Assembly: GCA_965243395.1 (NCBI GenBank)
Contig: CBDEUS010000002.1
Location: 449,310-513,309 of the forward strand
Length of the DNA: 64,000 bases
Reading direction: 5' to 3'
Source: Gammaproteobacteria bacterium
GTDB lineage: Bacteria > Pseudomonadota > Gammaproteobacteria > UBA4575
A program made the position numbers and the translations under genes. The notes beneath the pieces were generated by a model that was given only the letters and a program-made list of their open reading frames with translations, searched no databases and was not told the DNA's origin. This document shows positions 38,903 through 64,000 of the stretch, one piece after another; the first letter of the stretch is position 1, and each line of letters opens with the position of its first letter.

Positions 38903-40807
38903 ATGTCAAAAATTTACAAACACGACAATGATGATACTCCGGCTTATCGAAATGCTTGGAATAGTAGTTTTGCTGAAGTTCTGTCTCGACGCATGAGTCG
39001 TCGCGCGTGGATAAAGAGCATTGGCTTGATGGGTTTTTGTACAGTTTCAAGTAATGTGAATCTGTCTGCAAAAGATAAGCAAACACTACTTTCTTTTGAA
39101 GAAATTTCTCATGGCTTAGACACGCAATTACATTTAGCAAAAGATTATTCCGCACAAATTTTATTAAGATGGGGAGACCCATTGTTTAGAAATGAAAGTA
39201 AATTTAATCCTTATAAACAAAATGCTGAATCACAACTCAAACGTTTTGGATACAACAATGATTTTGTAGATTATTTATCAATTTCACGTAAGAAAAATAT
39301 TTCTAATCATGGGTTATTAGTTGTTAATCATGAGTATGTAAATAGTAGCTTGATGCATCCGGGCTCACCTAGACCCTATGATTTAGCACGAGAACAAATT
39401 GATACTGAAATGGCCGCTCACGGTCTCAGCATTATTGAGGTGTATAAACAAAAGAATCATTGGAACATTAAACTTGATTCAAACTACAATCGACGCATCA
39501 CGCCTTCTACTAAGATGAAATTATCGGGCCCTGCAAAAGGGCACCAAAGAGTAAAAACTGAATATTCTCCTCAAGGTGATTTTTGTTTGGGTACGTTTGG
39601 TAATTGTGCTGGGTGTGTAACACCTTGGGGAACTGTATTAACAGCAGAGGAAAACATTCAAGCCTATTTTATGGGTAATGCGAAATCTACGAATGAGCGC
39701 GAAAACTACAAACGTTTTGGATTACATGGAGATAAAACAGCATTATCTATATGGGGAAATTATCATGATATTTGGGATTTAGATAAACATCCACAAGCTG
39801 CTATGCATGCAGGATGGATTGTGGAGATTGATCCATACGATTCTTCATTTGTGCCGATTAAACGAACAGCTTTGGGTCGCTGTAAACATGAGGGATGTGA
39901 TGTGCACATCAATAAAGATGGAAGAGTCGTTCTATACATGGGCGATGATCAAACATTTGAATATATATATCGCTTTGTAAGCAAGGAAAAATTTCAAACA
40001 CATAACCAAAGAAATAATTTGGCTTTATTGGATGAAGGTGAGTTGAGTGTTGCGGAATTTACAGATCAAGGCACAGTTATTTGGCATCCATTGCAATACG
40101 GAAATGAACCACACATAAAAAAGAACGGATTTAACAGTCAAGCAGATGTCGTTTTAGATATGCGAAAAGCAGCTGATTTAGTAGGCGCAACACCGATGGA
40201 TCGGCCCGAAGAAATAAAAGTTAACCCAAAATCCGGAAATGTATTTGCTGTTTTAACTAACAATTTCAAACGTACACCGTTGCAAGTCGATGCTGTAAAT
40301 CCTCGTGCATTAAATCGACATGGGCACATTCTAGAGCTCATCGCTCCTGAACAAGACCATAGTGCCAGAGAATATCAATGGGAAGTATTCATATTAGCAG
40401 GAGACCCAAATAAAAAAATTGATCAGGCTTACTATTCTGCAAAGTTATCGGAAAATGGTTGGTTTTCTAGTCCTGATAATTGTAGCTTTGATAGGTATGG
40501 CAATATTTGGATTGCTACGGATGGCTTTAATCGATCCGGCAAAGCAGATGGGATATGGGTTTCTGTGACTGGTAATGAAAATGAGAAAATTTGTAAGCAG
40601 TTTTTACGAGCTCCGATTGGTGCGGAAGTTTGTAGCCCTTGCTTCACACCCGATCATAAAACGATGTTTTGTTCTATCCAACACCCGGGAGACGGGTCGA
40701 CATTTGATCAACCCAATACGCGCTGGCCTGATTTTAATTTAAAGATACCGCCTCGTCCTGCCGTGGTAGCGGTAACTCACGATCAAGACGAGGAGATAGG
40801 AAGTTAA
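38903..40807 (+). CDS. Tat-secreted PhoX-like (DUF839) phosphatase
   Basis: Twin-arginine signal SRRMSRRAWIKSIGLMG, about 630 aa, beta-propeller-like repeat content, TAEEN motif. Confidence 0.45.
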   Translation: MSKIYKHDNDDTPAYRNAWNSSFAEVLSRRMSRRAWIKSIGLMGFCTVSSNVNLSAKDKQTLLSFEEISHGLDTQLHLAKDYSAQILLRWGDPLFRNESKFNPYKQNAESQLKRFGYNNDFVDYLSISRKKNISNHGLLVVNHEYVNSSLMHPGSPRPYDLAREQIDTEMAAHGLSIIEVYKQKNHWNIKLDSNYNRRITPSTKMKLSGPAKGHQRVKTEYSPQGDFCLGTFGNCAGCVTPWGTVLTAEENIQAYFMGNAKSTNERENYKRFGLHGDKTALSIWGNYHDIWDLDKHPQAAMHAGWIVEIDPYDSSFVPIKRTALGRCKHEGCDVHINKDGRVVLYMGDDQTFEYIYRFVSKEKFQTHNQRNNLALLDEGELSVAEFTDQGTVIWHPLQYGNEPHIKKNGFNSQADVVLDMRKAADLVGATPMDRPEEIKVNPKSGNVFAVLTNNFKRTPLQVDAVNPRALNRHGHILELIAPEQDHSAREYQWEVFILAGDPNKKIDQAYYSAKLSENGWFSSPDNCSFDRYGNIWIATDGFNRSGKADGIWVSVTGNENEKICKQFLRAPIGAEVCSPCFTPDHKTMFCSIQHPGDGSTFDQPNTRWPDFNLKIPPRPAVVAVTHDQDEEIGS

Positions 40808-43619: not shown

Positions 43620-44318
43620 ATGAAATTGCTGTTGATTGAAGATGATGATCGAATAATTGAGTTTATTCAGCCGGGGCTACAAGCTGAAGGCTATATTGTC
43701 GATGTTATAAAGGATGGGCAAACCGCAAAAGACTTTATGCCTTATCATGACTATGGCGCAATCATATTGGATCTTTTATTGCCGGGAGTTGATGGCAGGG
43801 CTCTCTGCAGTCATATCAGAAGTACAGGTATAAGAATTCCGATATTAATGCTGACTGCATTAGACACTGTGGATGACCGTGTTTTAGGTTTAAAAATTGG
43901 TGCAGATGACTATCTAGCTAAACCCTTTGCATTCGAAGAATTACTGGCTCGAATTAAGGCTTTGATACGACGTAGCTGTGACTATCAAAATCAATCACCA
44001 AGAGTTCTTAGATTTGCAGATCTTGTTCTTGATGAAGAAACTTATGAAGTCACGCGTAATGGTAAAAAAATAGATCTAACACCAAAGGAATTTACTCTTC
44101 TTGCTTATTTGATGCTCCATGCAGAAAAAGTAGTTAGTAAAACAAAGATACTTGATAATGTTTGGGGGTATGACAGCGACCCATTTACGAATGTCGTGGA
44201 AGTTTATATAAGACATTTGAGAAATAAAATTGATAGGTCTAATAAAGTTCCACTAATTCATACAGTACGCGGGTTTGGCTATAAACTTCACGATTCCACG
44301 GTCAATAAAAGCAATTAA
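43620..44318 (+). CDS. OmpR-family response regulator
   Basis: Receiver domain (LLIEDDD…ILDLLLPGVDG) plus winged-helix C-terminus (…YIRHLRNKID…VRGFGYKL). Confidence 0.85.
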   Translation: MKLLLIEDDDRIIEFIQPGLQAEGYIVDVIKDGQTAKDFMPYHDYGAIILDLLLPGVDGRALCSHIRSTGIRIPILMLTALDTVDDRVLGLKIGADDYLAKPFAFEELLARIKALIRRSCDYQNQSPRVLRFADLVLDEETYEVTRNGKKIDLTPKEFTLLAYLMLHAEKVVSKTKILDNVWGYDSDPFTNVVEVYIRHLRNKIDRSNKVPLIHTVRGFGYKLHDSTVNKSN

Positions 44319-44320
44319 GA

Positions 44321-45304
44321 TTGAATATGTTTTTTGCTATTTTGCTAAAAAATATGGTTTATAAAAAAACCATATTGATTAAATCATACCTGGCACTATT
44401 ACTCCTTTTATTTTTTCAACAACCACTACATGCAGAAAATACTAACAACGATGTAGTTAGTAATGATATACGAAATGAAGTTTTAATACTTGGGCGTGTT
44501 TCACAAGGTCCACGTCGACATTATCGGGCTTTTGATAGCCTTGGAAAATATCTTGTCAAACACATGGAAGATGTTGGAATAAAAAGTTTCGAAATTAACT
44601 TTCCTCGAAACAAAGATGAAATGATTAAAGAATTGCAACAAGGCAGAATCGATTTTCTTTGTGATACTCCATTTTCAGCACTATTCTTTGAAAGAGAAGC
44701 AGATGCGAAAATCATATTACGACAGTGGAAGAATGGAGCTTCGTCGTATCGAACACATTTTATTACACATAAGGATAGCCAAATTAAAAATCTTAGTGAT
44801 CTTGCGGGGCACAAAATTGCATTCGAAGACCCTGGTTCTACATCAGCCTTTTTTGTGCCGATGCTTTCGCTTAAAAATAATGGTTTAGATGTGCAGCAGC
44901 TAGGGAGTTCAAGTTATAACCCAAAGCTGAATACCGTAAGCTACACTTTCAACTTTTCAGAGGAAAATATTCTTTACTCAATTTTGCGCGGAAAGAATGA
45001 TGCTGGAGCCATAAGTAATTTGGACTGGATTGATCCAACACAAGCACCTGAAGGTTTAAAGCGAGACTTGAGAGTATTTCATACGACTCCAAACATTATA
45101 CGTTCATTGTTTCTTGCCCGATCAGGCATTTCACCCGATATCGAAAAGCGAATTATATTTCTCTTAACAAACATGCATGAAAGTGAAGAAGGAAAAGAGG
45201 TGCTGAAAAATTTTTTTAAAGTAGCCCGATTCGATCGACTTGTTGATGATGCGGCAGAAGATCTTGAGTATGCGCGCGAACTGTTTGCCGGATTTGATTA
45301 CTAA
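44321..45304 (+). CDS. Periplasmic substrate-binding protein, PhnD/SsuA-like, placed between RR and HK
   Basis: Signal peptide, type-2 periplasmic binding fold length and pattern; the family call is tentative. Confidence 0.5.
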   Translation: MNMFFAILLKNMVYKKTILIKSYLALLLLLFFQQPLHAENTNNDVVSNDIRNEVLILGRVSQGPRRHYRAFDSLGKYLVKHMEDVGIKSFEINFPRNKDEMIKELQQGRIDFLCDTPFSALFFEREADAKIILRQWKNGASSYRTHFITHKDSQIKNLSDLAGHKIAFEDPGSTSAFFVPMLSLKNNGLDVQQLGSSSYNPKLNTVSYTFNFSEENILYSILRGKNDAGAISNLDWIDPTQAPEGLKRDLRVFHTTPNIIRSLFLARSGISPDIEKRIIFLLTNMHESEEGKEVLKNFFKVARFDRLVDDAAEDLEYARELFAGFDY

Positions 45305-45315
45305 AACCTAATAAT

Positions 45316-46935
45316 ATGAAACTGCGTCAACAATATGTATTAATACTTGGATCAGTATCGGTACTGATCATATTGACAATATCTGCAGCGATGGCCTTAC
45401 GACATAAGCATATGGAGTCACTGTTACTGCAATCAAGTTTTAATGCGATGTCTGAATCTCTTTATATCGAAAATGAAAACGCAGCGCGAGCGCTAACAAT
45501 GACACTCACAGACAGTCTTGTTGAGCCAATAGCGGTGGATGACTTCGAAGGTATTGCAAATGTTGCCAAGTCTGCTCGTAAGCTTCCACGTGTATCTAAA
45601 CTAATAGTATTTGATGCTCAAGGATTATTAGTTCATGACGGTACAGATCAAGTCAGTGAATTTGGCACACTAATTCCATCGGAAATTTTGGATGTAGTTA
45701 CTTCTAATTTTCATACTGTATCCGAAAGAAAAAATGACTTCTTAAAAGTTTGTGCTCCAGTCCATATTGATAACAGAGTGTTGGGAGGTATTTATCTAGA
45801 ATTTAAACTTGATTATGTAGATTCACATATTCAGGATTTAAAATCTGAACTTGAATATATTATCAAAAGTAATGATTTACGTGATTTTTTACTGACAACA
45901 CTATTAGCAATTATGGTGTGTATTTTGGCAGTATTAGGCGGCTTTTTTATCTCAAGACATCTGTCACAACCAATTCTTACATTAGCAGAGCTAACACGGC
46001 GAATTGGTCAAGGAGAATATGGAATTAAAACCAAAGTAACGAGTCGTCAGGATGAATTAGGCGAGCTAGCACAATCAATTCATTGGATGTCAAATGAATT
46101 AAGTAATCATACCTATACTAAAGCTCAGTTAGAGAATCTAATTAAAGTGCGTACGGCCGAGCTTGAGGATGCAAATCAAAAACTTTTACAAATAGACGAA
46201 ACTCGTCGAGAGTTTTTAACCGATTTAGGACATGAATTGAGGACGCCGTTAACTGCGATACGAGGCATTTCCGAGGTGAGGCTTCGATCTAGCGAATATC
46301 TAAATAACAATGACAGCTCTGCGCTTAAGCGTATCGTGGAGTTATGTGGACAACTTGGTTCTTTAGTGGATGACTTATTATTTATAGCGCGCTCTGAAAC
46401 AGGAAAACCTGTACTAGATACTACTACACTTTCATTATGCGCTCTTTTATCTAATGTAAAAGAACAAATGGCAGAGATCGCTAAGCAAAATCAAATTAAA
46501 CTCATATTTACATGTGATCATGACAGTTTAATTGAGGGGGATCCACGAAGATTGAAACAACTGTTTAGTATACTTATCGACAATGCAATAAAGTATTCAA
46601 AACCAAGCGGGATAGTAAAAATTGAAATTACTACCAGAACTGGCATCCCTCAGAATTTTGCTGACGTACGAATAAGTGATACTGGGATAGGTATGACTAA
46701 AGATGAGAAAGACCAGAGTACGATCCGCTTTTTTCGTGGCAAGCGCGCTCAAGAGAAACATGATAAAGGGATGGGGCTGGGGCTTTCTATAGCAAGAGCT
46801 ATCATGAGCGCACATGGGATTAATTTTAATTTGAGCAGTGAAATTAATAAGGGAACAACCGCTCTAGTCACATTTAATCTAGATGTAGACAGCTTCGAAG
46901 AAAATCAAGATACTAGTCAAATAGCGGGAATGTAA
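45316..46935 (+). CDS. Sensor histidine kinase (periplasmic domain-TM-HAMP-HisKA-HATPase)
   Basis: Two TM segments, H-box LGHELRTPLTAIRG, G-boxes DTGIGM and GMGLGLSIARAI. Confidence 0.8.
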   Translation: MKLRQQYVLILGSVSVLIILTISAAMALRHKHMESLLLQSSFNAMSESLYIENENAARALTMTLTDSLVEPIAVDDFEGIANVAKSARKLPRVSKLIVFDAQGLLVHDGTDQVSEFGTLIPSEILDVVTSNFHTVSERKNDFLKVCAPVHIDNRVLGGIYLEFKLDYVDSHIQDLKSELEYIIKSNDLRDFLLTTLLAIMVCILAVLGGFFISRHLSQPILTLAELTRRIGQGEYGIKTKVTSRQDELGELAQSIHWMSNELSNHTYTKAQLENLIKVRTAELEDANQKLLQIDETRREFLTDLGHELRTPLTAIRGISEVRLRSSEYLNNNDSSALKRIVELCGQLGSLVDDLLFIARSETGKPVLDTTTLSLCALLSNVKEQMAEIAKQNQIKLIFTCDHDSLIEGDPRRLKQLFSILIDNAIKYSKPSGIVKIEITTRTGIPQNFADVRISDTGIGMTKDEKDQSTIRFFRGKRAQEKHDKGMGLGLSIARAIMSAHGINFNLSSEINKGTTALVTFNLDVDSFEENQDTSQIAGM

Positions 46936-51250: not shown

Positions 51251-52549
51251 TTGAACATGAGTTTAAAAATGGTGGCCCTGAGGGTGGATAGCAGATCCGG
51301 GGATTTTTCTGTTCGGACCGCTTCCAACAAAATATATCTCTCCAAAGCGAATCTTAAAAAAATTCCCTTACCTGAAAAAGGTACCCAACGGATTTGGGAT
51401 ACCGAACAACCGGGTTTGTTTGTGCAACTTTCCTCAACCGGAAACGCGGTCGCCTACTATCGCTATCGATTGAATACACGTCAGCGTGATTATCGTATCG
51501 GACGCGTCTCGCATTTGAGTATGAAATCGATTCGTGAAGCGGTACGCAAAGCGGCAGCGAAAGTCGAATTGGGTCGCGATCCGCAACAAGAACGTAAAGA
51601 GGAAAAGAAACAACAACTCGAAGCCTTACGTCAACAAGAGAAAGACACGCACTCCACTTTGGGAAACTTTTATTACAACTATTATATTGATTATGCCAAG
51701 GCGCATTTAAAAGACTACGAAGCACGTTTGCATTCGATCGAATTTAATTTTCAACAATGGTTCGAATGGCCGATGGAAGAACTCACTCCTGCGGTAGTGA
51801 GTCAATGGCGCAATCAAAAAATGAATACACCTGTGATCCGAGGTAAAGGAGCTAATCGAACGGAACATCCGAGAAAACCGGGTGGTGTGAATCGACCGAT
51901 TGCCTATCTTCGTGCTCTACTCACCGTTGCATTTGAAGAAGTCGAGATCATCGACAAACATCCGTTGGCAAAATTCAAACCTTTAAAAGAACCCAAAAAT
52001 CCTCGCAAACGTTTTTTACGTGAAGACGAGTACATTCGCCTGCGCAATACCTTGCGGGAACGCGAAGACTATCTCCCGGTGTTCATCGAACTCGGAATTC
52101 ATACCGGACTTCGCATGAATGAAATGCTGACACTGACTTGGGAGAATGTGAACTTTCAAGAGAAGTGTCTCATCGTGGAATCACAATATGCCAAGAGCAA
52201 ACGTCAGCGAACGGTACCGTTGAATGACACCATCATCGCAATGTTGCGTGAATGGAAATTTAAGATTCAACGCTTCGGACCGTGGGTGTTCACCAATCCT
52301 GAAACCGGTAACCACTATGTTTCGATTAAACGGGCTTGGGTTGCTGCGATGAAGGAAGCCAATATTGAAGACTTTGTGCGTCAGGATTTACGGCGCACCT
52401 TTGGTAGTTGGTTAGCTGAACGTGGAGAAAGTATTTTTGTCATTAAAAATTTGCTTGGTCATAGCACCGTACAAGTCACCGAAGGGCATTACGCATATCT
52501 ACAAGATGATTCACAACGCCAAGCGGTGAAACGACTCGAAAATAAATAG
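51251..52549 (+). CDS. int: Tyrosine-type site-specific integrase (phage/P4-like)
   Basis: Catalytic residues in context: GLRMNEM (Arg), HxxR region, LGHSTVQVTEGHYAYL (Tyr); N-terminal SAM-like arm-binding region; adjacent to a tRNA fragment. Confidence 0.85.
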   Translation: MNMSLKMVALRVDSRSGDFSVRTASNKIYLSKANLKKIPLPEKGTQRIWDTEQPGLFVQLSSTGNAVAYYRYRLNTRQRDYRIGRVSHLSMKSIREAVRKAAAKVELGRDPQQERKEEKKQQLEALRQQEKDTHSTLGNFYYNYYIDYAKAHLKDYEARLHSIEFNFQQWFEWPMEELTPAVVSQWRNQKMNTPVIRGKGANRTEHPRKPGGVNRPIAYLRALLTVAFEEVEIIDKHPLAKFKPLKEPKNPRKRFLREDEYIRLRNTLREREDYLPVFIELGIHTGLRMNEMLTLTWENVNFQEKCLIVESQYAKSKRQRTVPLNDTIIAMLREWKFKIQRFGPWVFTNPETGNHYVSIKRAWVAAMKEANIEDFVRQDLRRTFGSWLAERGESIFVIKNLLGHSTVQVTEGHYAYLQDDSQRQAVKRLENK

Positions 52550-53211: not shown

Positions 53212-53475
53212 GTGGATCTAGAACATAACAGAACAGGCTCTATACAAGACGGCCAAATTCTTACATGTGCTGAAGCCGCTAAGTATTTAGGTGTGAGCAT
53301 ACTTGCTCTACGCGACTCACGATATTCGAATAAGTTATGTGGACGTAAATCACCGAAACATATTAAATTGAATCACCGTACTATTGTTTATCGTAGAACT
53401 ACTTTAGATGAGTGGCTTAATTCACTCGAAGAATTTGAGACTGCTTCAGAAGCTAGATCAGCAATTCAAAAATAA
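53212..53475 (+). CDS. AlpA/excisionase-like small DNA-binding protein
   Basis: 87 aa, ILTCAEAAKYLGVSILALRDSRY HTH followed by a basic region, typical position near an island integrase. Confidence 0.45.
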   Translation: MDLEHNRTGSIQDGQILTCAEAAKYLGVSILALRDSRYSNKLCGRKSPKHIKLNHRTIVYRRTTLDEWLNSLEEFETASEARSAIQK

Positions 53476-53491
53476 TGAAAATAATAAATAA

Positions 53492-53914
53492 ATGTCGACT
53501 AAGTATCATTATACAGATGACCTTGTATTAATAGATGAAGGAGATTATGAGTTTATTTATGATCATCACGAAACGTATCTATATTTAGGAAAATCCCCGA
53601 AGTTAGCGGTGTGGTTTAAAATTATTTCGAAGAGTAAGTTTAATGGAATATATATTCCACGATACTACAATGTTGCAAAAGTTAATGGAAAAAGAGAAAT
53701 AAATGGATTATTTGATCCAAAAGGTCAAAAAAGTGATCTCGTAAGAGAAGCGACACTAGTCACGGGGGAGATACCTGAAAGATATAATGAATCTCTAAGT
53801 TCATGGAAAGGAATAGTAGTTCTTGGGTATGTGCATGCAGTTCAAAAGAACTCAAATGGTCAAAAGTTACATGAAAAATTGCACTATTCTGTAATTAAAT
53901 ATTTATATATATAA
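53492..53914 (+). CDS. Island hypothetical protein
   Basis: ORF with a close-coupled start after the previous gene; no family recognised. Confidence 0.3.
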   Translation: MSTKYHYTDDLVLIDEGDYEFIYDHHETYLYLGKSPKLAVWFKIISKSKFNGIYIPRYYNVAKVNGKREINGLFDPKGQKSDLVREATLVTGEIPERYNESLSSWKGIVVLGYVHAVQKNSNGQKLHEKLHYSVIKYLYI

Positions 53915-54162
53915 GTATTCTAGTATTTCAAATTAGTATTTTAAATTTGTTAATTAGCTATCCCTAACCCTAGTGCCATACCAGTTCCTTCTCCCTTCCT
54001 ATTGCTAAACTTATTCCCACACCTATATACACATGTGAATATTCAGGTGTGTTATTGAAGACGATAATTTTTTCTATAACCCTGTAGTATAAATTTAATT
54101 TAATCGCAATCATTTACTCTAATAGGTCAAAAACCTATACATCAGCACCTGGTCAAACAATT

Positions 54163-55053
54163 TTAGTCCCACTCAACAGCCACGCTTATCACAGCATCTA
54201 ATACAATGGCAGCATCAGCTGCTGCTCGTCCATGCAAGGTAACTCCTAATTCCATTGAGTGTTCAAGTGATGCAGTATTCATGTTTGAGGATCCAATATA
54301 TACAGCATCTCTGTCACATAATATTACTTTTGCATGAAATGTTTCTCTTCCAGAGCCTACAATTTTTGGTATCGAATAGTTTAAGACGCGTATTGCATTC
54401 TCCTTCAGCCACATTGAAATAGTATCGTAACCTTGAGGATAGTCACTTCGAGACGGTGAATCTAAACTTCTTAGGATAAGTACCCGTTCAACATCAGCGT
54501 TTATAAGAGAAAATAATTCCTGAAGCCACAAAGCACCTTTTATATCAAAAAATGGTGTCATTACCACAACTCTTTGTTTTGCAGTTTGAACCATGTTTTG
54601 AAACGCGCGAGCAGTTGGTTCCAGTTCAGATGTCTTCCATCCAAACTCTGATAACTTTTTTTCTAAATTACTTGGTTTTGGTGGTTTAGTTAAAACGACA
54701 CTTGCATTTGTCGCGTCTTTATGAATATTAGAAATGTAAAAGTCTATAGTACTAAGTGCAAAAGCCAAACGTTTAAATAACTTGTAGGTACTACTAAGAG
54801 GTAAATAGCCATTATCAACCTTTTTGATAACTTTTAGCTCTACAGATTTTTCAAGTACTTCATGTGTAGCAGCTTCTTCTGTTAGTCCTAATTGTGCATG
54901 ATCAATCAATGTACGTTCAGATTGTACTAACGTTTCTGGTAACTCTGCCCAAGAATCAAAAAGTGAAGATGCTAAGCTCGCTCTATACACAAGTCCTACA
55001 ATTATTTGTTTCTCAAACGCTGAAAGTTTTTCTGCTGACATTGCAAAAAACAC
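54163..55053 (-). CDS. PLD-family (HKD) nuclease, DrmC-like
   Basis: HKD motif FHAKVILCDRDAVYIGSSNMN (H-x-K-x4-D-x6-GSxN); single PLD domain, 296 aa; 4 nt downstream of the DUF1998-like gene. Confidence 0.7.
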   Translation of the reverse strand: MFFAMSAEKLSAFEKQIIVGLVYRASLASSLFDSWAELPETLVQSERTLIDHAQLGLTEEAATHEVLEKSVELKVIKKVDNGYLPLSSTYKLFKRLAFALSTIDFYISNIHKDATNASVVLTKPPKPSNLEKKLSEFGWKTSELEPTARAFQNMVQTAKQRVVVMTPFFDIKGALWLQELFSLINADVERVLILRSLDSPSRSDYPQGYDTISMWLKENAIRVLNYSIPKIVGSGRETFHAKVILCDRDAVYIGSSNMNTASLEHSMELGVTLHGRAAADAAIVLDAVISVAVEWD

Positions 55054-55057
55054 TAAA

Positions 55058-57265
55058 TTACATTATTGAATCAAAATAACCATCGATTGCGCCTTTCCTA
55101 ATATCGAATCGCTTTGGCCGACCGCCTATTGATCGTAGTACTGTTCTTGATAAAAGTTTGTTGCCGGCAATACAAGATGTTTCAGGAATCATGATGCAAT
55201 CTGGACAAGCCCCTCCTCTTTGAGTACATAGAGAACCAGTACCACATTGTGTTGCTTTAATGCTTAACAGAGATGAAAGCATTGCAGTTCCTGAATTACG
55301 CCACATTGCAGAGAGATTTCCCAAGTCCATAGTAGTTCCACTACGATAGACCACAAAGGCAAGATCTGCAGGGAATATATATTCTCCTAATGAACCAAGA
55401 TCCAAACCAGAATATTCTGACACATGCTTCATCAATAAGTGCGAGTAGCTGTGAAGTAGTGTGTAGATATAATAATAAACTGATGGTGAATCAGACTGTT
55501 CTAACTGATCTAAAAAAGGCTTCATAGGTTGGGCTACATTTAATATACCTGCGCCAATTTTCTCAGTGGGATTTAGGGAGAACATGTCAGAACAATTTAA
55601 GTCTTTAAGCCAAGCTACAACCGTTTCTTCTTTAAGCCTCACATACAATGCTTCATTACTTTGCTGGACAACATACACGGGGTGACATGATATGTCGTTA
55701 TATTTTACTTTTGGGAAAAGCCTCATTCTTACAGGCATTCTCTTACCTCGTTTCTCTAAAGTTGGAGTCGACTCCATCCGTGAGTAACCAAAACTAAATT
55801 TGCATAAGTCAAATTCACGAATAAGACCCATATCATCAAGGCCCAACTTATCTAATAGCTCACGTGTATAGATTTGCTGTTCTTCAGTCTCTTCTATTTT
55901 ATTTGGCGCTAGATCTTCATCAAGTCTGGTAAACGAAACATACTTTTTTTTCCCATTTGTCTTTGTTTCTACATCCAGCCTTGTATTCTTTAAAGCAGAA
56001 TGTTCTACAGCTAATCTAAATGGGTCAAACTTTGAAGCAAATCGAGTTTGACGTTCATGAATATTAGCCAGGACATTACTAGGTAAATTCACCTTTGCAA
56101 TTAAAATTTCTCGTCTATGCAAATCATCTATAATCCGTTTTTTAGTTACATAAGCTGTATCTAAAGATTTCTTTAATATTTTACTTGTTTGGTCATCTGA
56201 ATTTTCTAATAGCTCTTCAATATCTCTAATTGTACTAACTGCACTTCTATATTCTGCGAGATCAATATTACATTCATCCTTTCCTGCACATGCATTTTCG
56301 ACATCTTCATCTGTAATTAAATCTACAGCGAATCCATATTGTATTGCTACAAAGTCTTTGAGAGCTTCTTCTCGACTTGGACGTAATCGTGTCAAAAGAT
56401 CTTGGCTTCCGTCTTTGAAGTCGACAAATAAATCTGATTTGAGGTAGTAAGCGTTTGATGCCCGATAAGGCGTTGCTTCCATTCGAACATGAGAAACCCA
56501 TGCTGAATAATTGAATCGTCCGATTATAGCTAAGGTGTCTTTGTCATTTTGCAACCATTTCCCTGGGTGTAATGGTTTATCACAAACTGCACACTCAAAA
56601 AACCATTCTCCTATTTGAGGGGATTTTCTATTAAGCCTAAAGTCGGCACTATTACACGTACATCTGCTTCGACGCGGAACGACTTTTTCTTTTTTACTAT
56701 CCCATTGCCATTGGCCCGGAAATGGAGCAGCCCAGTTGCCCGACCAATGAACAAAAATAACATCAAGTTGTTCCCAATCGCATTGCCCCTTTTTTCTAGG
56801 ATTTGGACAATATTCTGGTGTTAACTTACTCAAATTCTTGTCGAGCTCATTTAAGTTTTTATAATCTTTAAACATTCCACATGTTCTACACACAAAGCTA
56901 AGTGGTGCCGGTGTGTATCCCATATGTGACGGTTTGCATAGATGAAACCTGTCTTCACCAGGTAGTTGAAACTCAGAACATGATGAATTAAGCAATGCCC
57001 TATCTACACACTGAAGCGGTTTCACTGCTTCATTTGAGTTACCCCCCTCTCGAGCAGACATTGCCCTATCAAACCATGATGAACCTAGCTCATTCATGCG
57101 TTCATATATAAGCTCTTTGGTAGGTTCACTAAGATCAACTGAAGCACCAGCTGTTGAACGCGAAATACATGCACCGAGACCACCTTCAAATGTAAAAAAA
57201 CTTTCAGGCGCATAAGCAGTCGCAAGTTGATTTCGAGATCGAGACATAGTTTTAGCTTTAGCCAT
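55058..57265 (-). CDS. DUF1998-like Cys-rich protein, DrmB-like
   Basis: Cys clusters CRTCGMF…CPNPRKKGQC, CTCNSADF…ECAVCDKPLH and C-terminal CTQRGGACPDCIMIPETSC; sits between a helicase and a PLD gene as in DISARM. Confidence 0.55.
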   Translation of the reverse strand: MAKAKTMSRSRNQLATAYAPESFFTFEGGLGACISRSTAGASVDLSEPTKELIYERMNELGSSWFDRAMSAREGGNSNEAVKPLQCVDRALLNSSCSEFQLPGEDRFHLCKPSHMGYTPAPLSFVCRTCGMFKDYKNLNELDKNLSKLTPEYCPNPRKKGQCDWEQLDVIFVHWSGNWAAPFPGQWQWDSKKEKVVPRRSRCTCNSADFRLNRKSPQIGEWFFECAVCDKPLHPGKWLQNDKDTLAIIGRFNYSAWVSHVRMEATPYRASNAYYLKSDLFVDFKDGSQDLLTRLRPSREEALKDFVAIQYGFAVDLITDEDVENACAGKDECNIDLAEYRSAVSTIRDIEELLENSDDQTSKILKKSLDTAYVTKKRIIDDLHRREILIAKVNLPSNVLANIHERQTRFASKFDPFRLAVEHSALKNTRLDVETKTNGKKKYVSFTRLDEDLAPNKIEETEEQQIYTRELLDKLGLDDMGLIREFDLCKFSFGYSRMESTPTLEKRGKRMPVRMRLFPKVKYNDISCHPVYVVQQSNEALYVRLKEETVVAWLKDLNCSDMFSLNPTEKIGAGILNVAQPMKPFLDQLEQSDSPSVYYYIYTLLHSYSHLLMKHVSEYSGLDLGSLGEYIFPADLAFVVYRSGTTMDLGNLSAMWRNSGTAMLSSLLSIKATQCGTGSLCTQRGGACPDCIMIPETSCIAGNKLLSRTVLRSIGGRPKRFDIRKGAIDGYFDSIM

Positions 57266-57306
57266 TATTTTTTTCTCATAATTGATTTGGTTTCAAATAC
57301 TCATTT

Positions 57307-60300
57307 CTATGAATCAATGTCAGCTCCTGAGCCTTTTCTTATAAACATCATTGCACGGCCCGTTACACCATCTTGTACTCTATTATTAGCAGCATCGAAT
57401 TTTGATTCTTGAATTTCACCTGGAAGATCGACATCTCGGAGCGATGTCATAGGTCTTAGTAAGGGAGAGCGAACTTTAAAAAAATTTGACAGGTATGTGG
57501 CACTTACGAATTTGTCTTCATCTAGATCTTGTTGATAGTGATTTAGTTGTTCTTTAAGTAAAGCCCGATAATAATTTTTTCCTTCAGGTGAAGGCGAAAA
57601 TTCAAGTCCAAGTGCTTTTTCCATGAAAGTATTGGTTTCTTTTAAATTGTCCGGTTTATTTAGAAAGTTTTTTACGTCATCAGCCATCATATAATAAGGT
57701 GACTTATCCTTATTTTTTTCATTTGCAGCACATAATTCTTTAATTGCATTTATGCCGCATACATACTCTTGAAAGAAACTTGGCATTACACGAACAAGAG
57801 CTTTTTCTGCCCATCTATCTACAGATGCTGGGAGAATCATCCTTTCTAAAAACCTATGAAAAATATCATGTATCTCCAACACAAATCGGTCTCTATATCG
57901 TTGAGGTATTGGTACCAGCAATGAAAAACCGACATGCGTACGACCGACACGTGAAGAAGCTTGAATATATTGAGCGATATCCGACGGCATTCCTGCAAAA
58001 AACATTGCATTAAATTCTTCAACATCAACTCCATGTGATATTGCTGATGTTGCAATTATTGATCTCAACGTATTATTAAGATCAGGAAAAGGTTTATTTA
58101 TACCGACTCGTTTCTCTGCTTTTCGAATAACTTCCTGGATATCTCCAGCTGACACAGCTCCAGAAATAAGTTCTGAAGAAAGTATGTGCTCATCATAACC
58201 ATTGGCTTTGTGGAGCTTTTCAAATTCGACTTTCTCAGTATCAATGACTTGATCACCACCTTTTTTATTAGTTACATATGTCAATGAGATACGATGTAAG
58301 TCGATAAGGGTTAATAGTGTCTCGATACTTGCTTCAGTAAGTAACCGCACATGTTGTTTATATAATGCTCCGGGTGATACCCATTGTATTAATTTTTCTC
58401 TTGCATATTTTTGTTTAGTGGAATCTTCACTTCGTAAATATTCATACATTTCTGTTATAGCAAGGTGATAGTGTCCAAGTACAGAAGCCATTGCCACAGT
58501 GTGACGATGATTATTCGTAAGGACAGAAACATATATTCGAGCCCAATGGCTTCTTATTTCAGTTTCATGTATGGGTATCTCTACGCGTTCAGAATCTTCC
58601 AAAGTATTGTCTGGGTCTTTGGGATTCATATAAAAGGAACTGTATAATTCCGGTCCCGGATATGGAAATTGTATCGTCGAAGACCGTTGATATAGATTTC
58701 GCATTTGTCGATTTGGATCTGCAACTGTTGCAGATGCAGCAATCACTTTAATTTTTCTGCGAACAGTTGAGTTTGGTTCACAGCAAATAGCGCCATCAAG
58801 CAATGTAGCAAGTTGATCAAAAGCGGATTCTAATGCTGACTCAAATAGTGCTGCAAATGTTCCTAGCGATTCATCTAGTAAATGAGCCTCATCTTGAATA
58901 AGCAAAGATGGAAATGGATCATAAAATCTTTTTTCACCAGTTGAAAAAACTGGAAACAACTTTCGTGAATTAGAACCAGGATGCCCATCCCATTGTTTGA
59001 GCTGGTTTGGGGTGTGTAACCGATCCGAATCATTTAAAATTAATGGAGCAAAACCAAAAATTCCAAAGAATTTTCTAATTGTGCTTTGGGTATGACCTAA
59101 AGCAGCAAGTTTATCAATCGTGCCCAACAAAACTGATGGTGCAAGGCAATAGATGTCTTCATCTACTATATAAAAAGGAAGTGGTGTCGGAGACTTAAAA
59201 CGAGCGTTCCATGAGCATTTTTCTTTTGACGATGTACAAAAATGTCCTAATGTATTCGCACTGTTAGCAGAATGACGCCTAAGTGCTATAGCATCATCTT
59301 TATTATTATGACAAAAAGGGCATTTAGTGATTTTCAACCATCGTTCTTTTGCGCTTTTATATGGTTGAGTTTCTTTGAATTTAGTTTCATCGGTTGGAGC
59401 AACATCTATCTCAGTTGGAACGTCATTATATGCTTCATCTTTATGCCAATTAGGTGTGTTGCTGCGACCTACCCAGAAACCCAAGGAAAATATCTCGCCA
59501 GGATGATGACGTAAGTAGCGTATTTCCTCAGCAGCACTCATCACCTCAAAAGTTCTTCGTGCTTGCTGCAGTGTTAATAATCGAAGAGGATAACGCATGA
59601 GGGCTGATACACCGAAATGCTTTCCTCGTAGTCGATCTAAAAACAAAACAAAAACTAGTAAACCAAGAAAAGCCTCTGACTTACCCCCACCAGTTGAAAA
59701 GTAAAGAAGCGTTACAGCATTTGCATGCATTGCTGTCTCTGGTGTGTAAAAGCTATGGTATTCAGGAATACGAGTCACAAACGAAGGGATAGTTGCCAAA
59801 ATAAATGCCAGTTGAAACAAACGCCACTCTTTATAACCTTTTGCTTTGGCAACTTTGTGCATTGCTGTGTTCATAGACACCCATGCCTCAAACGGAATGC
59901 CAAGAGGAGATTCCTGAACTCCTGGACCGCTCCAATGCTTGCTTGATACATCTAAAATTTCAATTCCACAGCGTATCGCACTTAACTCATCACGCCATTT
60001 CTTAAGATCTTTTTGAAACTTATCTTCCTCCAGAATCTTTTGTTCCTCAGAATCTGGTTCTTCCAAACCTGAATCTACAGGATTATTTTTTATTTTATTT
60101 AGCCAAGACTCATATGAATCCAGTAGTGGTTTAAGTCCTTTTACACAATCTGGCTGTGACAATTTTTCAATATTGCTTTCTACTGTTACTTCAGCAGGTA
60201 TTATTCTTGGTAAAATATACCTTGGTGACCATGTCGTAGTTAGTAAATGTTGATCACCGATTTTTGTCATCACGACACCACCATTGAATCCAAGGGCGGG

Positions 60301-61485
60301 ATATTCTAAGTAGCGATTGTATTGATAGGATGGTTTGACACGGTCAAGACGTAAGGGCTTGTGTATTGAAGCTGGTAATTCTACCGACATTGATACATGG
60401 AACAGTGATGGTTCGATTTCTTTATAATTTGTTTTGTTTAATGGCTTCGTCCAATTCTCAATTGCAATATGAATTGTTTTTCGTGATGGTATTAAAGGAT
60501 CTGGTACTGTCTGAACCACCCATCGAAAATCAAATTCCGGTACTAACACCTTTAAATCGGATGTTCTTACCGAATCAAGATATTTTTCCCAGTTGCGTAT
60601 ATCAGATGGTTTAACTTTCAGCCCTTTTCTGTAGCACCAATGATGACCGCCAAAATTTTCATCAGTGCTCGTTGCCCAGTTATTTAATTGTTCTTTAATT
60701 GAATTATTAAGTAAGTTTGTTGCATTCGATGCATCCAACTTATCTAATGTGAAGTTAAACGAGGGAAGCTCTAGTTCAAGGCGAAGCCATTTGGGCGGTG
60801 GTAATATTTCTTCGACTACGTCATCGGGCAATGTGCCATTGCATTGAACTTCTTCCATTGGAGGATTTTTATCTTCATTAGGTAATTCATCATTTTCTTC
60901 CGCTTCATTATCAGAAAACTCAAATTCATCCTTATCAATCTGACTACGATCGAGCTCGTTATTAAAGGGTATACCCATTTCTTTATGAATAGCCTTGCGC
61001 ACTTGCTCGCTTTTTGTTTTCCAATCAGGGTGGTCATATCCACCCTCTAAAGAATTCCTCAATTCTGAAAGTGCAAAACGGGTTTTAGTTTTTATCTCTT
61101 TGTTAATTTTAGAGGTAAGTGGGAAATTTGGTGCTAACCTGCCATCAGGTTTTACGTCTTCTTGTGAGGGCAATACTCGTATGTATACAGCACCATTAAC
61201 TGAAACTTTGATATTTGAATTCTTTGCATCTGATCTGACTTGAAAATCTAGGCCATGTGCACTTATCTGAATTGGATTGGCTTCTTCATCACCATCACGC
61301 TCACCTTCAGGCATTGGCACTATGAATTCTGAAACAAGCTGTAAACTAGGTTTACGTTTATATATTACTTTGTAAAATTCACCTCGTCCTGCCAATCGAG
61401 CAGAAACATTATTTAGCAAACTGTCAACGACAGCTTCTTTATATCCGTCATGAATTTCACGTGGATCTTTGCTAAGAATAGACAT
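57307..61485 (-). CDS. Large SF2 DEAH-box helicase, DrmA-like
   Basis: Motif I FSTGGGKSEAF, motif II LLIQDEAHLL, motif VI QASSRVGRT; about 570-aa N-terminal region of unknown function; internal CPFCHNN…HFCTSSKEKC zinc-finger-like insert. Confidence 0.75.
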   Translation of the reverse strand: MSILSKDPREIHDGYKEAVVDSLLNNVSARLAGRGEFYKVIYKRKPSLQLVSEFIVPMPEGERDGDEEANPIQISAHGLDFQVRSDAKNSNIKVSVNGAVYIRVLPSQEDVKPDGRLAPNFPLTSKINKEIKTKTRFALSELRNSLEGGYDHPDWKTKSEQVRKAIHKEMGIPFNNELDRSQIDKDEFEFSDNEAEENDELPNEDKNPPMEEVQCNGTLPDDVVEEILPPPKWLRLELELPSFNFTLDKLDASNATNLLNNSIKEQLNNWATSTDENFGGHHWCYRKGLKVKPSDIRNWEKYLDSVRTSDLKVLVPEFDFRWVVQTVPDPLIPSRKTIHIAIENWTKPLNKTNYKEIEPSLFHVSMSVELPASIHKPLRLDRVKPSYQYNRYLEYPALGFNGGVVMTKIGDQHLLTTTWSPRYILPRIIPAEVTVESNIEKLSQPDCVKGLKPLLDSYESWLNKIKNNPVDSGLEEPDSEEQKILEEDKFQKDLKKWRDELSAIRCGIEILDVSSKHWSGPGVQESPLGIPFEAWVSMNTAMHKVAKAKGYKEWRLFQLAFILATIPSFVTRIPEYHSFYTPETAMHANAVTLLYFSTGGGKSEAFLGLLVFVLFLDRLRGKHFGVSALMRYPLRLLTLQQARRTFEVMSAAEEIRYLRHHPGEIFSLGFWVGRSNTPNWHKDEAYNDVPTEIDVAPTDETKFKETQPYKSAKERWLKITKCPFCHNNKDDAIALRRHSANSANTLGHFCTSSKEKCSWNARFKSPTPLPFYIVDEDIYCLAPSVLLGTIDKLAALGHTQSTIRKFFGIFGFAPLILNDSDRLHTPNQLKQWDGHPGSNSRKLFPVFSTGEKRFYDPFPSLLIQDEAHLLDESLGTFAALFESALESAFDQLATLLDGAICCEPNSTVRRKIKVIAASATVADPNRQMRNLYQRSSTIQFPYPGPELYSSFYMNPKDPDNTLEDSERVEIPIHETEIRSHWARIYVSVLTNNHRHTVAMASVLGHYHLAITEMYEYLRSEDSTKQKYAREKLIQWVSPGALYKQHVRLLTEASIETLLTLIDLHRISLTYVTNKKGGDQVIDTEKVEFEKLHKANGYDEHILSSELISGAVSAGDIQEVIRKAEKRVGINKPFPDLNNTLRSIIATSAISHGVDVEEFNAMFFAGMPSDIAQYIQASSRVGRTHVGFSLLVPIPQRYRDRFVLEIHDIFHRFLERMILPASVDRWAEKALVRVMPSFFQEYVCGINAIKELCAANEKNKDKSPYYMMADDVKNFLNKPDNLKETNTFMEKALGLEFSPSPEGKNYYRALLKEQLNHYQQDLDEDKFVSATYLSNFFKVRSPLLRPMTSLRDVDLPGEIQESKFDAANNRVQDGVTGRAMMFIRKGSGADIDS

Positions 61486-61505
61486 ATATAAGTTTTATAG
61501 TTTCG

Positions 61506-64000
61506 TTAATGTGAAATATCATTACGCTTATTTTGTGGTAGGGTAATATTTTCTACACAATAAACACAGCGCAATGCTTCTTGTTGCAACTGTCTAATAA
61601 CTTTCTTTGAAATTTTTCTATAAATGAATGCACTTTCTGGCTGAAACAGTATTTCTGCATACTGTGCAGAGAGTTGGCGCCCCAGCTCTATATTTAAACT
61701 ACGCGCATTACGAATGTAATTCCAATACATAACTGCTTGTTCGTCATTTATTTCTAATGCCATGCAAAATATTTTAAAAAACTTGAAATCTTTTGGTGCA
61801 TGCGGCTTAGTATCCCCATCAATTTTTAAATCTAACCAATAGTTGATACGGTCTGATCTACAATTATTAGCAGTCGTGTCGATATCGATCATTTTTTTAT
61901 GGATTACCTTCGCTAAAGTCGAACGTTTTTGTTCTTTAAAAATAATTTCGCAGCGATACTTGATATCTTCATGGTATATCTTAAGTAGGACACGTTGAGG
62001 ATAGACTTCTGAAGGTGAGCCATCGTTAGTAAGCTGCAAGACAGATTCAAGCTTAGTTCGAAGTTCATCATCCATTACAAATATAAAATCACCTTCCTCA
62101 ATTGAACGCGCATTGACTCGACGAAAAAATGGATCCTCATCAGCTTCATAGCGATATAGCATACCTGTGGCGTAATGATGAGAACCATCCTCCAATCCAA
62201 ATTTGAAGTATGTTTGATTGACTTTGTCATTTGAATTATTAACAGCTTCTAAATTGAACTGCATATTCATTTTGTGCAACTTTTCAATGTTCAGAGGATT
62301 TGGTATTTCGTTAAGTTTTAACGTCAGCTGTTGTATGAGTAATCCCATCCTTCCTCGATAAGGTCTAAAAACTTCTATCCCATTCATGCTTTTGAGAGTT
62401 ATTAATGTAGATTTAGCCTGCTTATAAGTAATTAATACTGATGTGCCATGAGGAATATCTGGGTGTGCGATTAAGCAACGTATTACATCAGAATTAACCC
62501 CAATAAATAAAAAATGGCAAGCTTCAAATTTTTCAGAAAGAACTTTGCGGACAGTAAGTAGCGTATGCCAATCTATATTTAATTTGACCGTTTCCCAATC
62601 ATTAGCAAGCTTTCGTTTTAAAAAGTTTTGCGCCAACTCAATATAATCGATGTTTGGTAAAACTATAAGAAGCTTTTTACGATCTTCGATTACATATTTT
62701 TTTACCTCACTGAAAAGCTTGGATGCCAAGGGAGTTGCGTCTGCCCACATATCAATGAGTTTTTCGGCTTTACTAATAGCCTCGTCTGCTTCTTTTCTTT
62801 TAGCATTAAGTTGTCCCGACTCGAGTACCTCTTGTAGTCCAATACGGACAGATGACCATGAATTTTTTTGATTTACAAATAGGTGGCCTTCCTTTGTTTT
62901 TGTTAATTTAGCTGTAAGATCACTGTAGCCTGCAGGCAGATTTGACAAACGCGCAATATAGCAACAAGCATTAATAACAGCTTCATAGCTTGAGCTCTCA
63001 TAGTTGCCTGCTTCTTTGGCAAGTCGTTGAAATGATAAAGCAACCTGAGACGCATCACGGTCGACAATATCTACTTTGAAATTTGCAAGACTCTTTTGCT
63101 CGGGCTTCCAGTCTGCTGAAAGAGCTTGGGGAGACAATATCGCATTAACCCTGTCAGATTCTGCAGCCCATATTTTCTCTTTATATTTTAATTTTAATTT
63201 TACTAGTTTATCTCGAAGTACAAAAAATGTTTTTGGATCGTCTGTGACAATTAAAGCACCACAATTTTCATATCCATTTTCAATAGCAACATTCAAAAAG
63301 TCAGGAATTTTCATAATAGATTTGTAGTTGCTTAGAGAAGTTGCATCAAGCAGAATAATTTCTGGCTGGTTATTCTCTTTTAATGCTTCTGATCCAAGAG
63401 AGTCTTCCCAATTGCTTTTGTTTGTGTTTTGAGGTAACACCATCATGGCACCAGGCGCATAAATTGGATTACCCCACTCGTCATTTACTTTCTCTCGTAA
63501 TATTCGCCGTCGTGCTAACTTATCAACCTTCTTAAGTGAACGTTCTAAAGGGAAGTTAGCCACTGTAGTCCAATCTTGTTGTTCTGGAACGTAAGTAAAT
63601 GCTGGTATGAGCTCGGCTAGAGATGGATCGTCCATCTCAGGATTATTTTCCCTAATATCATTCAGCGCTGTGAGCATTGCCTTGAATGATTTGGATTGTG
63701 TATGACACTCGAATTTAAGCCCCTCTTCTTCATTATGTACCCAAAGCGATCGAAACAAGTCGCTTAGTTGTTCTCGGTTCACTAAAGTAGATTGTAAAGA
63801 AATTCGGTATGTACGCTTTCCTGGATATAAGAGTGTTCTCATACCGCGCAAATCTTTTGCAAAGTTACGCTCAATGTTTGCTAGTGCATGCAGTAACGCA
63901 AGCCCGAAGAGACGTACGGGCCAGATAAGACACAAATTAATTTCGCCCTTTTCAGTAGTTTCTAATGTTAAATCAACTAATTCACTAGCCCATGGCTGTA
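61506..64000 (-). CDS. Large protein of unknown function, 5'-truncated by the window edge (>830 aa); DrmE-like position upstream of the helicase
   Basis: Reading frame stays open to position 64000 on the minus strand; no helicase, SNF2 or methyltransferase motifs in the visible 830 aa; 20-nt gap to the helicase start. Confidence 0.4.
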   Translation of the reverse strand, partial: QPWASELVDLTLETTEKGEINLCLIWPVRLFGLALLHALANIERNFAKDLRGMRTLLYPGKRTYRISLQSTLVNREQLSDLFRSLWVHNEEEGLKFECHTQSKSFKAMLTALNDIRENNPEMDDPSLAELIPAFTYVPEQQDWTTVANFPLERSLKKVDKLARRRILREKVNDEWGNPIYAPGAMMVLPQNTNKSNWEDSLGSEALKENNQPEIILLDATSLSNYKSIMKIPDFLNVAIENGYENCGALIVTDDPKTFFVLRDKLVKLKLKYKEKIWAAESDRVNAILSPQALSADWKPEQKSLANFKVDIVDRDASQVALSFQRLAKEAGNYESSSYEAVINACCYIARLSNLPAGYSDLTAKLTKTKEGHLFVNQKNSWSSVRIGLQEVLESGQLNAKRKEADEAISKAEKLIDMWADATPLASKLFSEVKKYVIEDRKKLLIVLPNIDYIELAQNFLKRKLANDWETVKLNIDWHTLLTVRKVLSEKFEACHFLFIGVNSDVIRCLIAHPDIPHGTSVLITYKQAKSTLITLKSMNGIEVFRPYRGRMGLLIQQLTLKLNEIPNPLNIEKLHKMNMQFNLEAVNNSNDKVNQTYFKFGLEDGSHHYATGMLYRYEADEDPFFRRVNARSIEEGDFIFVMDDELRTKLESVLQLTNDGSPSEVYPQRVLLKIYHEDIKYRCEIIFKEQKRSTLAKVIHKKMIDIDTTANNCRSDRINYWLDLKIDGDTKPHAPKDFKFFKIFCMALEINDEQAVMYWNYIRNARSLNIELGRQLSAQYAEILFQPESAFIYRKISKKVIRQLQQEALRCVYCVENITLPQNKRNDISH

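Follow-up and report, generated by a model that had tools for sequence, protein, structure and literature searches.

A DISARM-like operon and its relatives

DISARM has been described in two classes that share the core triplet drmA, drmB and drmC. PADLOC defines type I by DrmA, DrmB, DrmC, DrmD and DrmMI and type II by DrmA, DrmB and DrmC together with DrmE and DrmMII (PMC9252829), and the gene order is drmD, drmMI, drmA, drmB, drmC in Serratia sp. SCBI (class 1) and drmE, drmA, drmB, drmC, drmMII in Bacillus paralicheniformis (class 2). Within the YprA family, the splitting of helicase and DUF1998 into two genes is a hallmark of DISARM, and "many uncharacterized DISARM-like ... classes" have been noted (bioRxiv 10.1101/2025.09.15.676423). 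The related ARMADA types I and II (Bell et al. 2025, bioRxiv 10.1101/2025.09.15.676423; PMC13463889) combine a YprA-family helicase with an adenine methyltransferase (MTase) and a second superfamily 2 (SF2) protein. The present analysis concerns a DISARM-like operon at positions 53492-64000 of a 64-kb stretch of DNA (64,000 nucleotides, hereafter the window) from an uncultured gammaproteobacterium (GCA_965243395.1, contig CBDEUS010000002.1, positions 449,310 to 513,309), in which no MTase gene is visible. The missing MTase is very probably, and on synteny "almost certainly", an effect of where the window ends.

Four co-directional genes were found on the minus strand in 54163-64000, separated by gaps of 4, 41 and 20 nucleotides (nt), and PADLOC confirmed the DISARM-like identity of the locus. 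The DrmA-like protein matched its PADLOC model (5.9e-84) and Pfam Helicase_C (PF00271, 33.1 bits vs a gathering threshold of 23.5), reached 335 bits with NCBIfam DISARM_DrmAS, below the cutoff of 950, and had Serratia DrmA (7s9v_A, 2.4e-40) as its only match in PDB. Its helicase motifs are intact, with the Walker A sequence GGGKS at residue 599 and DEAH at residue 865. Moreover, residues 175-226 (window positions 60808-60963) form a 52-residue acidic and probably disordered segment with 20 Asp/Glu vs 3 Lys/Arg, the position of which matches residues 176-232 of Serratia DrmA, its auto-inhibitory trigger loop (PMC9142583). The DrmB-like protein was recognised by PADLOC (1.4e-17) and scored 45.7 bits with NCBIfam DrmB_fam, below the cutoff of 240; Serratia DrmB (7s9v_B, E 1.6e-3) was its only PDB match, and no Pfam family, DUF1998 included, matched at E up to 0.01, but its position and the gene order fit DrmB. 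For the DrmC-like protein, Pfam PLDc_2 (PF13091) gave 40.2 bits, above the gathering threshold of 27, and PADLOC 1.3e-11; the NCBIfam DrmC_I score of 49 bits lay below the cutoff of 133, and an HxK(x4)D motif was located at residue 240. The window ends within the fourth gene (hereafter X), whose true start lies about 300 nt further on, so that 100 codons are out of view. The list of open reading frames (ORFs) had given a complete 809-amino acid (aa) ORF with a TTG start at 61506-63935, which is an artefact, as the frame runs without a stop up to the window end.

Related loci were gathered by three routes, namely an exact homologue look-up, an alignment-based scan of one genome per species, and a plasmid search, and the presence of an MTase was scored in those with at least 1.8 kb upstream of X (n = 40) and in the closest relative (L043, 64% identity). 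A same-strand MTase gene stood directly upstream of X in 41/41 loci, that is, in 40/40 fetched with this upstream length and in L043, which places it one gene further upstream than X. The only two loci without an MTase match (L028 and L033) both begin inside X. Counted from the first start codon, the MTase ORFs measure 572-667 aa, and they carry the Pfam domains N6_Mtase and Eco57I wherever Pfam matches are on record. The ORF was intact in each of the 39 loci measured, and its distance to the start of X was -13 to +91 nt. The 36 distinct MTase ORFs were without exception intact and adjacent to X, with no rearranged example, and 35 of these 36 MTases kept the NPP[YF] motif. Their best PADLOC model was MTase_II (PDLC03338, 5e-164 to 5e-175), and no DrmMI model appeared among the best 25 PADLOC models. 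The order MTase-X-DrmA-DrmB was invariant across the related loci, and DrmC came next in 24 of the 34 with room for it. The same five genes, under generic RefSeq names, were found on plasmid pPNAP03 of Polaromonas naphthalenivorans CJ2 (L042, 89447-101356), where X is 24% identical to the present protein.

As the MTase is directly upstream of X in all 41 loci, an MTase gene is expected on the minus strand at approximately 64,300-66,100, and the first gene of the operon is out of view because X begins 100 codons past the window end. By this comparison of gene order, X is the second gene, the first lying beyond the window, and the locus in the window would represent the 3' four-fifths of a five-gene operon encoding MTase, X, DrmA, DrmB and DrmC, all on the minus strand. 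The predicted first gene would encode an N6-adenine DNA methyltransferase of about 580 aa with N6_Mtase and Eco57I domains and an NPPY motif. Synteny thus gives strong support to one option of the original prediction, in which the MTase lies beyond position 64000, and it is highly probable that an adjacent, intact MTase gene is located upstream of X in this genome. 

The predicted methyltransferase gene and the end of the window

The absence of an MTase that had been noted for 53492-64000 was borne out and holds for the whole window. Among open frames, the [DNS]PP[YFW] motif was absent from all those with 120 aa or more, none of those with 150 aa or more contained both of the C5-MTase motifs, PCQ and ENV, and tblastn of the window with five MTases from related operons returned no match (best E-value 1.2). 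The visible 830 aa of X, described earlier as free of MTase motifs, indeed contain neither [DNS]PP[YFW] nor an FxGxG-type motif, and the 140-aa ORF reported on the opposite strand downstream of the phospholipase D (PLD) gene is present as stated (Table 1). This absence is a fact about the window and not a statistical signal.

One observation weighs, though weakly, against an adjacent MTase. When the Thiodiazotropha MTase was used as the query, no MTase of the source genome was found among the best 120 of its 1457 homologues, although DrmA, DrmB, DrmC, the 140-aa ORF, the alkaline phosphatase PhoX and the pyruvate dehydrogenase (PDH) E1 of this genome are all represented in the protein collection searched. 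This observation was examined with controls. The loci of two close X relatives (P0014 and P0011) have an MTase, which is likewise missing from the best 120 of 1457. In addition, three loci (L032, L040 and L018) encode a DrmA 77-80% identical to that of locus L001, but their MTases are only 53-54% identical to the L001 MTase, which is the identity at which the best 120 end. Across the related loci, identity to the L001 MTase spans 36% (L031) to 100%, regardless of DrmA identity. The MTase sequences thus do not diverge in step with X, DrmA and DrmB, which suggests that the MTase module has been exchanged between otherwise related operons, a swapping that probably alters the recognised motif. With a module exchanged in this way, absence from the best 120 homologues is uninformative, and it was rejected as a hint that the MTase is missing.

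A first alternative, very improbable, is that this copy of the operon is truly MTase-less, its first gene having been lost or deleted, and that host DNA is spared solely via sensing of DNA structure by DrmAB. Such a copy could be viable, given that a double methylase deletion in the Serratia class 1 system caused no autoimmunity (bioRxiv 10.1101/2021.12.28.474362), and the lack of a source-genome MTase among the best 120 of 1457 homologues would fit it. However, none of the 41 related loci, with X identities from 24% to 66%, is without an MTase, and the controls deprive the homologue list of its weight. The suggestion of an MTase-less or rearranged variant, in which self/non-self discrimination would be open, accordingly found no positive support. 

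It is very improbable that an MTase is present in a non-canonical form, whether disrupted by a frameshift or insertion sequence, replaced by an unrelated MTase family, or moved within the island. No other part of the operon is exchanged as freely as the MTase, as its 36-100% identity to the L001 MTase illustrates, and a broken gene would yield short products scoring under the cut-off of the best 120; against this, 36/36 distinct MTase ORFs of the relatives are intact and adjacent, and a rearranged example was seen in none. The remaining possibility, that the MTase forms the unseen N-terminal part of X, was refuted; its sole attraction is that X is cut by the window, while the 930-aa database protein P0001, 100% identical to the visible 830 aa, and an AlphaFold2 model show residues 1-100 to be a Lys-rich helix followed by a disordered linker, X lacks NPPY and FxGxG, and its full-length relatives do not exceed 985 aa. 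With an adjacent MTase as the favoured reading, the self/non-self question largely dissolves, as there is no good reason to think that discrimination works here without methylation.

Gene X and a possible third DISARM class

An exhaustive profile search of 1.84 billion representative proteins assigned 254 clusters to the X family, and 71 full-length representatives of 807-985 aa were taken from the best 150 of these clusters. None of the 71 has a fused extra domain or an MTase motif in MTase context. Scans of genome and metagenome contigs with P0001, and of viral contigs with alignment A1, returned no relative. The AlphaFold2 model of X, built with 65 homologues (mean predicted local distance difference test score 80.9), shows two RecA-like alpha/beta domains with a helical insertion between them; after these come a small beta module and a C-terminal region made up of helices. 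Its best Foldseek matches in PDB were the helicase cores of Hef, RIG-I/MDA5 and FANCM (E 6e-7). The loop at the Walker A position reads WP(A/V)(K/R)xx in the alignment, and no Walker A was present at the expected position in any of the 71 full-length representatives. The strand end at the DExx position carries LLDATS, with D318 and A319 invariant among the 65 homologues. Because the RecA fold is present but Walker A and DExx are absent, the model points to an SF2-helicase-like protein that is probably ATPase-dead, and the family as a whole is unannotated and probably consists of ATPase-dead SF2-like proteins.

Neither Pfam nor PADLOC (E up to 1) nor NCBIfam gave a match for X, SNF2 (PF00176), DrmD and DrmE included, and its identification as DrmD or DrmE was ruled out, only a generic SF2 fold being detected. 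PADLOC applied to ten distant members of the family gave nothing relevant (one weak Cas12a match in P0512), a profile search against PDB sequences gave nothing at E up to 10, and the C-terminal 240 aa, modelled separately, matched no nuclease, MTase or methyl-reader fold. Within the helical C-terminal region, cysteines occur at positions 783, 813, 845 and 911 (approximately 61566-61952), three of them invariant among the 65 homologues and the fourth nearly so; they may form a metal site or a structural cluster.

The assignment to class 1 or class 2 contained in the original prediction did not hold, as the operon fits neither and the gene upstream of drmA is not drmMI, DrmD or DrmE. Like class 1, the operon encodes DrmA and a DrmB-like, putatively DUF1998-type partner in two genes with the PLD protein DrmC last, a second protein of SF2 fold, an acidic loop at the trigger-loop position of DrmA and, as judged from the relatives, an N6-adenine MTase upstream of the core. 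It differs from class 1 in that X has neither ATPase motifs nor a match to SNF2 or DrmD, whereas DrmD is an SNF2-like helicase; in that the MTase of the relatives is an N6_Mtase/Eco57I protein of about 580 aa with MTase_II rather than DrmMI as its best PADLOC model; in the order MTase-X-A-B-C; and in that DrmA, DrmB and DrmC score far under the curated NCBIfam cut-offs. With class 2 it shares a large protein upstream of drmA and the same core triplet, but X matches no DrmE model of PADLOC or NCBIfam, the 140-aa opposite-strand ORF stands downstream of drmC in place of a C5 MTase (PF00145), and in the relatives the operon has an adenine MTase gene at its 5' end.

Similarly, the locus resembles ARMADA in its combination of a YprA-family helicase with a second SF2 protein and, as predicted, an adenine MTase, and in being carried on an integrase-bearing mobile island. 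In ArmC, however, helicase and DUF1998 are fused in one protein that also has Vsr nuclease domains, whereas the present operon has separate genes and a PLD nuclease; ArmA is an active RapA/Snf2 (BrxHII/RapA-like) ATPase, whereas X is without ATPase motifs; and ARMADA further differs in its PglX-like ArmB and in the GajB-like helicase added in type II. The MTases of the relatives are also comparable to stand-alone type II/IIG gamma-class adenine MTases (N6_Mtase + Eco57I), as they match MTase_II PDLC03338 and carry NPPY. Unlike these, they are encoded by the first gene of a DrmAB operon, overlapping X or at most 91 nt away from it, and are not paired with a restriction endonuclease.

A literature search found no named description of this five-gene variant. 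On balance, we lean slightly towards regarding MTase-X-DrmA-DrmB-(DrmC) as a distinct, unnamed third class of DISARM. In such a class, the place of DrmD or DrmE would be taken by a catalytically dead X and that of DrmMI by a short type-II-like adenine MTase, and X would connect the methylation module with the DrmAB motor in a non-enzymatic role. The five-gene arrangement persists at X identities as low as 24% and is spread over many Proteobacteria as well as some members of a few other phyla. Current tools miss it as DISARM, as the NCBIfam scores fall under their cut-offs, the type I and type II definitions of PADLOC are unsatisfiable and the RefSeq names are generic. Naming the class would help the annotation of defence systems, and it offers a natural comparison for the contribution of DrmD and DrmE.

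Every step of the mechanism that may be proposed for this operon is inferred from the class 1 DISARM of Serratia. In that system, DrmAB binds single-stranded DNA and 5' overhangs and is auto-inhibited by the DrmA trigger loop (residues 176-232), which is displaced by DNA with a 5' overhang (PMC9142583). Methylation by the MTases of the system acts as an off switch, methylase deletion is not toxic, and drmC is dispensable (bioRxiv 10.1101/2021.12.28.474362). By analogy, the adenine MTase would mark host DNA at a short motif, and the DrmA-DrmB complex would be held inactive by the acidic loop of DrmA until it loads on invading DNA with 5' single-stranded ends, which it would sense and unwind; host-type methylation would dampen DrmAB. 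DrmC would be an optional accessory PLD nuclease, consistent with its absence in 10/34 relatives. As a matter of speculation, X would be a non-catalytic scaffold or DNA-binding adaptor in place of DrmD or DrmE, an idea that arises because X invariably lies between MTase and DrmA and has no motifs for ATP binding or hydrolysis. The loci that lack drmC are L001, L014-L017, L020, L024, L025, L038 and L040.

The mobile island and its surroundings

A tyrosine integrase gene marks the left end of the island, and the operon is located at this same end (Table 1). The combination of integrase, small terminase and AlpA-like genes suggests a phage-satellite island, similar to phage-inducible chromosomal islands (PICI-like), and the island is comparable to the satellite-like elements with defence genes that Bell et al. 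discuss (bioRxiv 10.1101/2025.09.15.676423). No tRNA gene was detected in the window. The protein cluster of the 140-aa ORF has a single member, and none of the gene tables read for the relatives lists a counterpart beside the operon; this ORF is island cargo outside the defence system.

Table 1. Features of the island and the operon in the window
Feature	Position	Strand	Evidence
Integrase, tyrosine type, with Arm-DNA-binding domain	51251-52549	+	Pfam Phage_integrase 6.2e-26, Arm-DNA-bind_3 1.8e-11; phrog_1 integrase 3e-56
Small terminase subunit homologue, 175 aa	52550-53077	+	phrog_4044, terminase small subunit, 1.8e-29
AlpA-like HTH_17 excisionase/regulator	53212-53475	+	Pfam HTH_17 1.7e-4, 22.2 bits (below the gathering threshold of 27); PHROG excisionase 2.3e-3
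Orphan 140-aa ORF, convergent with the operon	53492-53914	+	No family match in Pfam, PADLOC, NCBIfam or PHROGs
DrmC-like PLD nuclease, 296 aa, last operon gene	54163-55053	-	Pfam PLDc_2, PADLOC DrmC
DrmB-like partner, 735 aa, Cys-rich C-terminal module, putatively of DUF1998 type	55058-57265	-	PADLOC DrmB
DrmA-like SF2 DEAH helicase, 1392 aa	57307-61485	-	PADLOC DrmA, Pfam Helicase_C
Gene X, 830 of 930 codons visible, should extend to ~64298	61506-64000	-	Open frame to window end; family unannotated

The genes to the left of the integrase are housekeeping genes. In the chromosomal flank, a phosphate-related cluster (43620-46935 and 38903-40807) comprises genes for a PhoX alkaline phosphatase, a response regulator, a phosphonate-binding periplasmic protein and a HAMP histidine kinase, and is unrelated to the operon. 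The PDH E1 of the host shares 83-85% identity with proteins of gammaproteobacterial metagenome-assembled genomes and 68% with those from Thiodiazotropha and Sedimenticola. In the plasmid-borne relative of Polaromonas naphthalenivorans, the operon on the 172-kb pPNAP03 is preceded by UvrD-helicase and AAA ATPase genes and directly followed by type I restriction-modification genes (class I SAM-dependent DNA methyltransferase and restriction endonuclease S subunit), and these surroundings constitute a plasmid-borne defence island.

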